A stretch of DNA of 64,000 nt from contig JBDRQC010000008.1 of assembly GCA_043826505.1 (NCBI GenBank), positions 114,125 to 178,124 of the forward strand. Reading direction: 5' to 3'. Below are positions 45,370 through 48,436 of this stretch, one piece after another (positions within the stretch are counted from its first letter, which is position 1; each line of letters opens with the position of its first letter). This stretch comes from Chrysiogenia bacterium (lineage in GTDB: Bacteria > Acidobacteriota > Aminicenantia > UBA2199). The position numbers and the translations under genes were made by a program. The notes beneath the pieces are model-generated. The model worked only from the letters and a program-made list of their open reading frames with translations. It was not told the DNA's origin and ran no database searches.

Positions 45370-48258
45370 ATGAAAGAAAAATTCGTTTATTTTTTTTCCA
45401 AGAAATTGAGTGAAGGCAGCAAGGAGATGAAGAATCTCCTGGGTGGCAAGGGTTCGGGACTGGCTGAAATGGCCAGCATCGGCCTGCCGGTCCCGGCCGG
45501 TTTTACCATCACCACCAAAGTCTGCGAACTGTTTTATAAAAACAACCGGCAATATCCTGCCGGTTTGGCAAAGGAAGTCGATGAGAACATGCGCAAGCTG
45601 GAAAAGGAAGTGGGGAAAAAATTCGGCGACGCCGACGACCCCCTGCTGGTTTCGGTGCGCTCGGGAGCATCGCTCTCCATGCCCGGAATGATGGAGACCA
45701 TTCTCAATCTCGGCCTGAACGACCGCTCGCTGGACGGCCTGGCCAGGAAAACAGGCAACCGCCGCTTCGCTTTGGACGCCTACCGCCGCTTCATCATGAT
45801 GTACGGTTCCACGGCCAAGGGCATCGACCGCGAAAAGTTCAACCACGCCTTTGAAACCCTGAAAAACCAGCTGAGTAGAAAGCGCTTGAACCTGGCTGCC
45901 CACATCAAGGTCAACGATACCGATGTGAGTGAGGGCGAACTGGAAAAGCTGGTGAGTGAATTCAAGGTCATCTATAAAAATCACATCGGCAAGGATTTCC
46001 CCCAGGATCCCAAAGAACAGCTTTGGGGCTCTGTGGACGCTGTCTTCGGCTCCTGGATGGCAGAAAAAGCGGTCACCTACCGTCGCGTGGAAAAGATCAC
46101 GGGCGTGGGGGGCACGGCCGTCAATGTCCAGCAGATGGTGTTCGGCAACATGGGCTCCAATTCCGGCACCGGCGTCTGCTTCACCCGCGATCCCAACAAC
46201 GGCGAAAACATTTTTTACGGTGATTACCTGGTCAACGCCCAGGGCGAAGACGTGGTGGCCGGCATCCGCACCCCGATCAGGCTGGCGGATTTCGAAAAAG
46301 CCGATTCAAAGTCCTATAAGCAGCTGGTAGAAGTGCGCCGCATCCTGGAAGGGCACTTCAAGGACATGCAGGACCTGGAATTCACCGTGGAAGAGGGACG
46401 GCTGTACATGCTGCAGTGCCGCACCGGCAAAAGGTCGCCTGGCGCCGCTTTCAAGGTCGCCGTGGACATGGCCAACGAAAAGTTGATCAGCAAAGAAGAG
46501 GCCCTGCTGCGCATCAAGGACAAGGACATCGAAGGGATCTTCTACCCGATCATCGATCCCGATCAAAAAGATGAGATGAAGAAGAATTTTCTGGTTTCGG
46601 GCATTGACGCCGTGCCTGGCGCCGCTACCGGCAAGGTGGTTTTCAATGCCAGGGAAGCCGAAGCAGCTGCCGCCAAGGGCGAAAAAGTCATCCTGGTGCG
46701 CAAGGAGACCAGCCCCGAAGACGTTGGCGGCATGCATGCCGCCCAGGGCATCCTGACCGCCACCGGTGGCAAGACCTCACACGCGGCCGTGGTGGCCCGC
46801 GGTTGGGGCAAGTGCTGCATTGTCGGCTGCGAAAATCTGAACATCAACTATGAAAAAGAAGAATTGACGGTAGGCGACATGGTGGTCAAAAAGGGTGAGG
46901 AACTTACGCTCAACGGCTCCAGCGGCCAGGTCTACCGCGGCTCCCTGCGCCTTATCAAGCCTGAGCCCCCCGCCGCGTTCAAGACCCTGATGGGCTGGGT
47001 GGACAAGATCCGGGCCATCAAGGTGCGCACCAATGCCGATACCCCTTACGATGCCAGTAAGGCCGTCGCCCTGGGGGCCGAAGGCATCGGACTCTGCCGC
47101 ACCGAACACATGTTCTTCGACACAGAGGAGCGCCGCCTGGCCATCCAGGAAATGATCGTGGCCGATACACTGGACGGCCGCGTTGACGCCCTGAACAAGC
47201 TGCTCCCTTTTCAGAAAGAGGACTTCAAGGGGATTTTCAAAGCCATGGACGGCTTCCCGGTGACCATCCGCCTCGTCGATCCGCCGCTGCACGAATTTGT
47301 TCCCCATACCGAGGAGAAGCAGAGGCAACTGGCACAAGAGATCGGCGTTCCTTATGAAAAGATCCGCTACCGGATCGAACAGCTGCACGAATCCAACCCC
47401 ATGCTCGGGCACCGCGGCTGCCGCCTGGCCATCACCTACCCCGAGATCCTGGATATGCAGGTGCGGGCCATCATCGAAGCCGCTTGCGAATGCGCCGCCT
47501 CGGGGATAAAGGTCTATCCCGAGATCATGATCCCGCTGACCATCGATAAAAAAGAGCTGCAGATCCTGGAGATCCGCACCCGTCAGGTCGCCGACGAGAT
47601 CATAAAAACCAGGAGCGTAAAACTGAAATACCTTGTCGGCACCATGATCGAAGTGCCGCGGGCGGCGCTGCTTGCCGACCAGATGGCCGAAGTGGCCGAG
47701 TTTTTCTCTTTCGGCACCAACGACCTGACCCAGATGACAATGGGTATTTCCCGTGACGACGCCGGCAAGTTCCTGCCCGAGTACGTTGATGAAAAAAAAG
47801 CCGGCATCTTCAGCGACGATCCCTTTCAGTCGCTCGACCAGGCCGGAGTGGGCATGCTGGTCAAAATGGCCATTGAAAAAGGCCGGAAAACAAAACCCGT
47901 GCTCAAGATCGGCATTTGCGGCGAACATGGCGGCGACCCTAAATCGGTCGAATTCTGCTGCCGCGTGGGCATGGACTACGTCTCCTGCTCGCCTTTTCGC
48001 GTACCCATCGCCAGGCTGGCCGCGGCCCAAGCCGAGATCAGGAAAAACATGGTGACTGTGCCGGTCAAGGCGAAAAAAGCGGCTGTAAAAAAAGCCCAAG
48101 CGGCAAAAAAGCCGATTGCGGCAAAGAAGAAAGCCGCTGCCGTGCGCAAAGCCAAACCCCCGAAAAAGGTTGCCCGTAAAGCGCCCGTGAAGAAGATAAA
48201 AAGGGCCATCAGGAAGCAGGCTCCAGCCAAGCGCAAATTGATCAAGAAAAAGATATAA
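45370..48258 (+). CDS. ppdK: Pyruvate phosphate dikinase with a Lys/Ala-rich C-terminal tail
   Basis: LGGKGSGLAEM, LLVSVRSGA, GEDVVAGIRTP, GGKTSHAAVVARG (phospho-His), GIGLCRTEHMFF, FSFGTNDLTQ, GICGEHGGDP. Confidence 0.97.
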   Translation: MKEKFVYFFSKKLSEGSKEMKNLLGGKGSGLAEMASIGLPVPAGFTITTKVCELFYKNNRQYPAGLAKEVDENMRKLEKEVGKKFGDADDPLLVSVRSGASLSMPGMMETILNLGLNDRSLDGLARKTGNRRFALDAYRRFIMMYGSTAKGIDREKFNHAFETLKNQLSRKRLNLAAHIKVNDTDVSEGELEKLVSEFKVIYKNHIGKDFPQDPKEQLWGSVDAVFGSWMAEKAVTYRRVEKITGVGGTAVNVQQMVFGNMGSNSGTGVCFTRDPNNGENIFYGDYLVNAQGEDVVAGIRTPIRLADFEKADSKSYKQLVEVRRILEGHFKDMQDLEFTVEEGRLYMLQCRTGKRSPGAAFKVAVDMANEKLISKEEALLRIKDKDIEGIFYPIIDPDQKDEMKKNFLVSGIDAVPGAATGKVVFNAREAEAAAAKGEKVILVRKETSPEDVGGMHAAQGILTATGGKTSHAAVVARGWGKCCIVGCENLNINYEKEELTVGDMVVKKGEELTLNGSSGQVYRGSLRLIKPEPPAAFKTLMGWVDKIRAIKVRTNADTPYDASKAVALGAEGIGLCRTEHMFFDTEERRLAIQEMIVADTLDGRVDALNKLLPFQKEDFKGIFKAMDGFPVTIRLVDPPLHEFVPHTEEKQRQLAQEIGVPYEKIRYRIEQLHESNPMLGHRGCRLAITYPEILDMQVRAIIEAACECAASGIKVYPEIMIPLTIDKKELQILEIRTRQVADEIIKTRSVKLKYLVGTMIEVPRAALLADQMAEVAEFFSFGTNDLTQMTMGISRDDAGKFLPEYVDEKKAGIFSDDPFQSLDQAGVGMLVKMAIEKGRKTKPVLKIGICGEHGGDPKSVEFCCRVGMDYVSCSPFRVPIARLAAAQAEIRKNMVTVPVKAKKAAVKKAQAAKKPIAAKKKAAAVRKAKPPKKVARKAPVKKIKRAIRKQAPAKRKLIKKKI

Positions 48259-48386
48259 GTGTTTGTGATAGTGATAGTGTTAGTGTTAGCAGCATGCAAT
48301 TCAGCGAATTATTGTTTCGTTTGATTGCAACTTCTAACGCTAGCACTTATATTTGGTTCGCAGCAATTTTTGGTCAACACTAACAC
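48259..48386. repeat. Hexamer (GTGATA/GTGTTA) inverted-repeat element
   Basis: GTGTTT GTGATA GTGATA GTGTTA GTGTTA versus CTAACG CTAGCA C (48334-48346) and CAACAC TAACAC (48375-48386). Confidence 0.7.
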
Positions 48387-48407: not shown

Positions 48408-48436
48408 TTGACATTTTTAAGCCCATTCTCTACAAT
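48408..48436 (+). promoter_or_regulatory. sigma70-type promoter of the ABC/pilD operon
   Basis: TTGACA (48408-48413), 17 bp, TACAAT (48431-48436). Confidence 0.75.

Follow-up and report, generated by a model that had tools for sequence, protein, structure and literature searches.

The PPDK gene and its C-terminal tail

The window analysed here is a stretch of 64,000 nucleotides from the genome (2.0 Mb, 68% complete) of an uncultured Aminicenantes bacterium. It carries a gene for pyruvate, phosphate dikinase (PPDK), the enzyme that catalyzes the reaction ATP + pyruvate + Pi ↔ AMP + phosphoenolpyruvate (PEP) + pyrophosphate (PPi). The reading frame continues beyond the usual end of this enzyme into a polycationic tail rich in lysine, alanine and proline, and it is this tail that concerns us here. 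The coordinates of the gene and its parts are given in Table 1.

As judged from its sequence and domains, the protein is a complete member of the PPDK family with its catalytic motifs intact. It scores 1300.9 bits against TIGR01828, the NCBIfam equivalog model for PPDK (EC 2.7.9.1; cut-off 843.45), with residues 4–890 aligned to model positions 2–865 of 865, the last position being reached. PF01326 (PPDK_N), PF00391 (PEP-utilizers, mobile) and PF02896 (PEP-utilizers_C) are all matched far above their cut-offs, and the body comprises a nucleotide-binding, a phospho-histidine swivel and a PEP/pyruvate TIM-barrel domain. The catalytic phospho-histidine (TSH) motif GGKTSHAAVVARG lies in the swivel domain at residue 466 and the catalytic cysteine motif CGEHGG in the TIM-barrel domain at residue 850; both are invariant across the PPDK alignment. 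The solved PPDKs 1KBL/1DIK can be aligned with the body over its full length, and all eleven solved PPDK sequences compared stop within a few residues of positions 888–903 of the query.

A sequence-only reading of this DNA had described a histone-H1-like string of 69 residues (48049–48255) with 24 Lys, 5 Arg and no acidic residue. Every letter of that string and each of these counts is correct, and it holds 17 Ala, 7 Val and 6 Pro besides. Its extent, however, was drawn too short: the residues RKN between RLAAAQAEI and MVTV had been left out, so that the extension is really 72 residues long. The body has a net charge of 0 and the tail one of +31, which raises the calculated pI from 7.2 to 9.3. 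In composition the tail is H1-like (about 30–40% Lys, rich in Ala and Pro, with nearly no acidic or aromatic residues). When searched alone against Pfam and NCBIfam up to an E-value of 10, it matches no family, including linker histone, Hc1 and HC2. The likeness to the C-terminal domain of histone H1 is thus compositional, not homologous.

AlphaFold2, run with an alignment of 52 sequences, gives the whole protein a mean predicted local distance difference test score (pLDDT) of 82 and a predicted template-modelling score of 0.77, with most 10-residue blocks of the body at pLDDT 80–97. The last helix of the PPDK model spans residues 875–896, and the tail exits the TIM-barrel domain right after it. 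Residues 897–962 have a pLDDT of about 30 (28–32) and zero secondary structure; this part of the tail is predicted to be intrinsically disordered.

Table 1. The PPDK gene and its parts (positions are those of the window)
Feature	Position	Strand	Basis or remark
Whole PPDK gene	45370..48258	+	962 codons + TAA stop
Canonical PPDK body, residues 1–890	45370..48039	+	TIGR01828, three Pfam domains, motifs, AlphaFold
Polycationic Lys/Ala/Pro tail, residues 891–962, 72 aa	48040..48255	+	beyond PPDK model, relatives, omega 0.42
Predicted disordered part of tail, residues 897–962	48058..48255	+	AlphaFold
18-bp (6-codon) tandem repeat, 2.4 copies, inside tail	48088..48129	+	site of 18-nt deletion in independent strain

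We also considered whether the ATG at 48049 might be an internal start for a separate, H1-like protein of 69 residues. This was rejected given that the methionine is not conserved in relatives, which read EIKRLAQAQPKK, EIRKNLAKAT or others at this point. On the minus strand, a Phe/Ala-rich open reading frame (ORF) of 107 residues (47976–48299) runs antisense to the tail; it is the mirror of the Lys/Ala codons and does not indicate a gene. Directly 3' of the PPDK stop lies an array of the hexamer GTGATA (48258–48289; 4.2 copies, or a 12-mer 2.7 times), followed by a strong sigma-70-like promoter (TTGACA-17-TACAAT, 48408–48436) ahead of the downstream gene for an ABC-transporter ATPase.

Coding reality, distribution and specificity of the tail

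That the tail is an artefact of an assembly frameshift or a missed stop, and so not part of the protein, has hardly any probability left and is already refuted at the DNA level. A-rich runs are indeed error-prone, and frameshifted tails do occur in a few low-quality assemblies (L028 of genome G006, P0067 and P0047); in these, loss of frame collapses the tail composition to a mixed acidic and basic string. However, dozens of assemblies made independently (JGI, ENA, NCBI and Logan) show the same frame and composition. The Logan assembly of the groundwater run from which the genome came agrees in every letter of the tail, although it derives from the same sample and is not independent. An unrelated metagenome, from lake water, contains a contig that covers 47503–48236 and differs by 28 substitutions and one in-frame deletion of 18 nt at 48100, and by nothing else. 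Since this deletion falls in the 18-bp tandem repeat, the tail changes in length by whole-codon slippage.

The pattern of substitution likewise argues against an artefact. Compared with the nearest species (G022), the tail has a nonsynonymous rate (dN) of 0.22 and a synonymous rate (dS) of 0.53, giving a ratio (omega) of 0.42, whereas for the final 600 codons of the body dN is 0.03 and omega 0.09. The tail dN is about seven times that of the body; evidently, the tail evolves fast yet under purifying selection (omega below 1). As for L028 (G006:C2:156351-159035), which belongs to the same genus, this PPDK has six in-frame TGA codons in addition to its frameshifted tail; either the assembly is error-prone or this copy is decaying.

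A doubt attached to the sequence-only reading was that close orthologues might lack the tail. A survey of PPDK C-termini found instead that most close orthologues carry it, with the frame conserved. Among 25 genomes of the genus the tail is present in at least 17, while the proteins of G012 and G016 end in KLKESK or KLKASK; in the remaining genomes the PPDK gene is cut by contig ends or absent. No remnant of a tail was found 3' of the stop in any frame in G012 or G016. The other families of the class are mostly tailless, apart from one with short basic tails of 23–35 residues (L020, L021).

A tree built from 105 PPDK bodies places the window's protein inside a clade of 57 clusters with 100% support, of which 49 are tailed and 8 tailless. 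Given that the tailless members are nested among tail-bearing lineages, one gain followed by one to three losses is the simplest history. The 49 tails are 29–88 residues long, contain 37–54% Lys plus Arg and have at most two acidic residues each; pooled, they consist of 37% Lys, 23% Ala, 8% Pro, 7.5% Val and 7% Arg, with 0.9% Leu, 0.3% Phe and no Trp. Their best-conserved part is the extreme C-terminus (…[IV]V[RK]GKKxKK), GKK plus a few residues ending 30 of 48 tails. Tailless members of the wider PPDK subfamily also end in 2–5 Lys, and hence the tail looks like the expansion of an older, short basic terminus. The idea that it compensates for the charge of an acidic body was rejected, the mean net charge of the body being −2.4 in tailed and −1.2 in tailless members of the clade.

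To place the tail among the other proteins of the organism, the 2.0-Mb genome was scanned in six frames for Lys-rich, acid-free windows of 40 residues. Besides HU and ribosomal protein L35, only four credible proteins match: PPDK, RpoD, a 102-residue protein with a KPKV-repeat tail and a 77-residue desulforedoxin-like protein. The same kind of scan was applied to 30 enolase and 30 phosphofructokinase loci from 25-plus genomes, nearly all of which have a tailed PPDK. None of their ORFs contains such a window, while the PPDK loci are flagged; wherever the enolase signature could be located, the protein terminates at the canonical distance from that point. On this evidence from the sequences, the tail is specific to PPDK.

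RpoD (sigma-70; G000, contig C7, reverse strand, a frame of 734 residues) has a basic N-terminal extension of about 115 residues, in which an imperfect repeat (…AKL[KR]K.A..PSAR[VG]KKQ…) occurs three or four times. The string RKQAP occurs twice in the six frames of the genome, only in this extension and in the PPDK tail; a shared motif was nevertheless rejected, as one common 5-mer is expected from composition alone (shuffling, p = 0.33). The 102-residue protein (MPTKRTVMRSSKGTKLYAVRDAKGRF…; G000, contig C4, plus strand, near 588869) ends in a Lys-rich tail of the (KPKV)n type and matches no Pfam family up to an E-value of 10; it is a candidate lineage-specific, H1-like nucleoid protein. The Cys-rich protein of 77 residues (G000, contig C7, reverse strand, near 582869) has a Lys/Val/Pro-rich stretch N-terminal to its desulforedoxin-like region, which matches PF06397 weakly (17.9 bits, below the cut-off). 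We also examined paralogues in G005 and G007 that aligned to the query up to residue 948, as a possible second PEP-utilising enzyme with a tail. They were rejected: both are HPr-EI-EIIA fusions of the phosphotransferase system, the alignment had entered the EIIA domain, and there is no Lys tail.

The best 80 PPDK loci in species-representative genomes were collected with six search patterns. Basic C-terminal tails of 25–175 residues are found in 36 of these 80, a share that may be slightly inflated because one of the patterns was derived from the tail itself. The tailed loci belong to Aminicenantes/Acidobacteriota, to many Spirochaetota (Treponemataceae, Rectinemataceae and others), to many Planctomycetota (Planctomycetales, Phycisphaerae), to one member of the Myxococcales and to one of the Omnitrophota. 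PPDK representatives at an E-value below 1e-30 number 7117. When 150 PPDK clusters at 50% identity were sampled by their representatives, only about 4–6 showed a basic tail. Judging from these counts, the tail is rare among PPDKs overall, yet recurrent. The PPDK tree forces at least four changes of tail state. Spirochaetota and Planctomycetota each gained a similar tail on PPDK independently.

The PPDK tails of the Treponema type (L046, L050, L051) contain RGRP cores such as KKRGRPAK and KRPRGRPRGSK. In L046 the tail matches the Pfam family AT_hook (PF02178) in two copies, at 22.9 bits against a cut-off of 17.4, and the tails of L050 and L051 score just under that cut-off. AT-hooks are a defined kind of motif with affinity for the minor groove of DNA. 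Given that these independently evolved tails carry AT-hooks, nucleic acid gains indirect support as the target, and in terms of sequence they are the best pointer to what PPDK tails may bind. Over their final 100 residues, which include the tail, 48 proteins of the window's own clade show no AT-hook-like motif (RGRP, or GRP followed by Lys or Arg). Two further spirochaete tails, L045 and L049 (Rectinema, Treponemataceae), are about 130–175 residues long and built of repeated GKPGRKPAA or VGRPAKAAA units.

Pyrophosphate economy and the possible roles of the tail

The genomes of the class were searched for enzymes of polyphosphate and PPi metabolism. Polyphosphate kinases are lacking (PPK1, PF02503, 0/25; PPK2, PF03976, 0/25; 13 of the genomes being of high quality), while control genomes were positive. 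A membrane H+-pyrophosphatase is present in 24 of the 25. Soluble pyrophosphatase is limited to one genome for family I and three for family II, with none in 16 genomes of the genus. As soluble pyrophosphatase is almost absent, PPDK would be one of the few cytoplasmic consumers of PPi. Pyruvate kinase occurs in 10 of the 25 genomes, including the window's own, and its presence does not follow that of the tail. This picture, with neither PPK1 nor PPK2, almost no soluble pyrophosphatase, a near-universal H+-pyrophosphatase and patchy pyruvate kinase, holds for the genus (G000–G015) and the class (G025–G033), and points to an energy economy centred on PPi.

On balance, we favour the view that the tail attaches to nucleic acid electrostatically and in this way positions the PPDK dimer. 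The tail would have arisen once near the base of the Aminicenantes clade, probably when the short Lys-rich end (…GKKK) already present in the PPDK subfamily was extended. Selection has since retained it for its charge and composition and not for its exact sequence, its length drifting by slippage of in-frame repeats. The two tails of a dimer would bind non-specifically to the nucleoid, or to RNA and ribosomes. PPDK, which consumes PPi and AMP and forms ATP, would thereby be held on the polymers whose synthesis frees PPi, in a lineage with no recognisable soluble pyrophosphatase.

Several observations weigh against this view. Sequence cannot separate charge-driven binding to DNA from binding to RNA or to acidic membranes, and the window's own tail has neither an AT-hook nor a match to a Pfam DNA-binding family. 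Two species of the genus (G012, G016) and 8 of the 57 clusters have lost the tail with no obvious compensating change. The two metatranscriptomes of the source study contain no contig of the organism over the PPDK gene, only conserved-motif fragments from other organisms. Finally, when 25 tailed and 25 tailless genomes from several phyla were compared, the absence of soluble pyrophosphatase did not follow the tail (7/25 in either group). Hence, the rationale of PPi scavenging is plausible but has no comparative support.

A more specific form of the nucleic-acid-binding view is speculative, and we consider it rather unlikely as it stands. Tailed PPDK at the nucleoid or the translation machinery might convert PPi, AMP and PEP into ATP on the spot, polymerases and aminoacyl-tRNA synthetases supplying the PPi and AMP, or might have a moonlighting role in the nucleoid. 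In the former case, PPDK would take the place of the missing soluble pyrophosphatase as a local sink that pulls polymer synthesis forward; in the latter, an abundant dimer with two tails might itself act as a nucleoid-associated protein. Tethering of this kind would have arisen independently in phyla that are mostly anaerobic and run on PPi (Aminicenantes, Spirochaetota and Planctomycetota).

Other explanations were weighed against binding to nucleic acid. The tail could be a nearly neutral by-product of slippage on A-rich Lys/Ala codons, through which a short Lys-rich terminus grows and shrinks, the tails being tolerated without having any particular function. The 2–5 Lys at the end of tailless subfamily members would fit this, as would the 18-bp repeat that coincides with a copy-number difference between strains, the fast turnover of sequence, the wide range of lengths (29–88 residues) and the loss of the tail in a nested subclade. 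Nevertheless, we judge it unlikely: composition is tightly held at no more than two acidic residues in 49 diverged tails, omega is below 1, and the tail persists in a clade whose bodies have diverged by 15–25%. Moreover, PPDK acquired basic tails time and again across several phyla, which the enolase and phosphofructokinase of the same genomes did not, and the frameshifted L028 and P0067 lose the composition at once when the frame is lost. It is improbable, in our estimate, that the tail acts on PPDK itself, be it as a bristle that aids solubility or prevents aggregation, as an electrostatic antenna for PEP, PPi and AMP/ATP, or as a modulator of the swivel cycle or of oligomerisation. The tail does leave the PEP/pyruvate domain directly after the last helix, all substrates of PPDK are polyanions, and restriction to this one enzyme fits an intrinsic role as well as it fits localisation. 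However, the body is near neutral and not more acidic in tailed members, so that a surface for docking is not evident, AlphaFold assigns the tail no position (pLDDT about 30), and the AT-hooks of the spirochaete tails point outward, to DNA.

A tether to the acidic inner face of the membrane, beside the H+-pyrophosphatase, is quite improbable, even though that enzyme is found in nearly all genomes of the class and the genus has no soluble counterpart. Polybasic tails can bind acidic lipids, and TubY has a basic C-terminus with affinity for membranes as well as for DNA (PMC7762940). Yet the clade tails contain few large hydrophobic residues and 8% Pro, no amphipathic helix is predicted, and tailless relatives have the same H+-pyrophosphatase. 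Polyphosphate, which the sequence-only reading had named among the possible targets, loses support in a lineage with neither PPK1 nor PPK2, and we regard binding to polyphosphate granules as very improbable here. Precedents exist: AlgP is found on polyphosphate granules, whose even spacing depends on its KPAA tail (PMC9239181), and the Lys-rich C-terminus of Trypanosoma cruzi histidine ammonia lyase (HAL) binds polyphosphate electrostatically (PMC8561398). PPK1 is also present in 17 of the 25 other genomes with a tailed PPDK, but the figure for tailless genomes is 13 of 25 and the difference is not significant.

If binding to nucleic acid holds, tailed PPDK, anchored on DNA or RNA, would be a natural case of metabolic recycling beside polymer synthesis, and would help to explain how PPi is disposed of in lineages that lack soluble pyrophosphatase. 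Taken together, conservation in the clade, specificity to one enzyme and repeated gain suggest an unrecognised layer of spatial organisation in bacterial PPi and ATP metabolism. The PPDKs with AT-hooks in spirochaetes of the Treponema type may give a culturable route to the question of tethering.

Comparison with known systems

In full-text searches of the literature, no description of a basic tail on PPDK came up. The solved PPDKs from Clostridium symbiosum (1KBL/1DIK), maize (1VBG), Flaveria (5JVJ) and Trypanosoma brucei (2X0S) share the three-domain body with the window's protein over query residues 3–903, at more than 1000 bits. All of them terminate no more than a few residues from the last helix, whereas the window's PPDK continues into a disordered, polycationic tail of 72 residues.

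Of the precedents for DNA-binding tails of Lys, Ala and Pro that the sequence-only reading had named, those of Ku of Mycobacterium smegmatis (PMC3553676), actinobacterial TopA (PMC7398561) and chlamydial Hc2 (PMC2848022) are borne out by published work; in Ku and TopA, the tails bind DNA. The PAKKA repeats of Ku, the lysine repeats of TopA and Hc2 resemble the window's tail in composition, in having no acidic residues and in low complexity, and all vary in length through the copy number of repeats. They differ in that they sit on proteins that handle DNA, unlike the window's tail, which sits on a glycolytic/gluconeogenic enzyme. They also form a regular array of pentamers, whereas the window's tail has one weak 18-bp repeat and no detectable homology to them.

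AlgP and PhaF of Pseudomonas use Lys/Ala/Pro tails in positioning granules (PMC9239181). Their H1-like domains of KPAA repeats are, like the window's tail, disordered and rich in Lys, Pro and Ala, and they provide a precedent for such a tail as a localisation device, since they position a non-chromosomal component of the cell relative to the nucleoid or to granules of polyphosphate or polyhydroxyalkanoate. Unlike the window's PPDK, however, they are structural or regulatory granule proteins with regular repeats spanning 150 residues. Polyphosphate granules are, in any case, unlikely in the window's lineage given that it has no PPK1 or PPK2. HAL of T. cruzi (PMC8561398) offers a further example: in this metabolic enzyme, charge lets a Lys-rich C-terminus bind a polyanion, which governs where the enzyme is located and how it is regulated; it is unlike the window's PPDK in being eukaryotic, in having acidocalcisomal polyphosphate as its target and in the much shorter length of its basic region.

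A further parallel is with the PPDK tails of the Treponema type (L046, L050, L051), which share with the window's tail the enzyme, the terminus and the strongly basic, disordered character, and were acquired convergently; they have RGRP cores, whereas the window's tail does not. H1-like tails are known on DNA-handling proteins and on organisers of granules. Here, a tail of this putative tether type is found on an unexpected carrier, PPDK, a central enzyme of carbon and energy metabolism, and it is in this that the novelty appears to lie.

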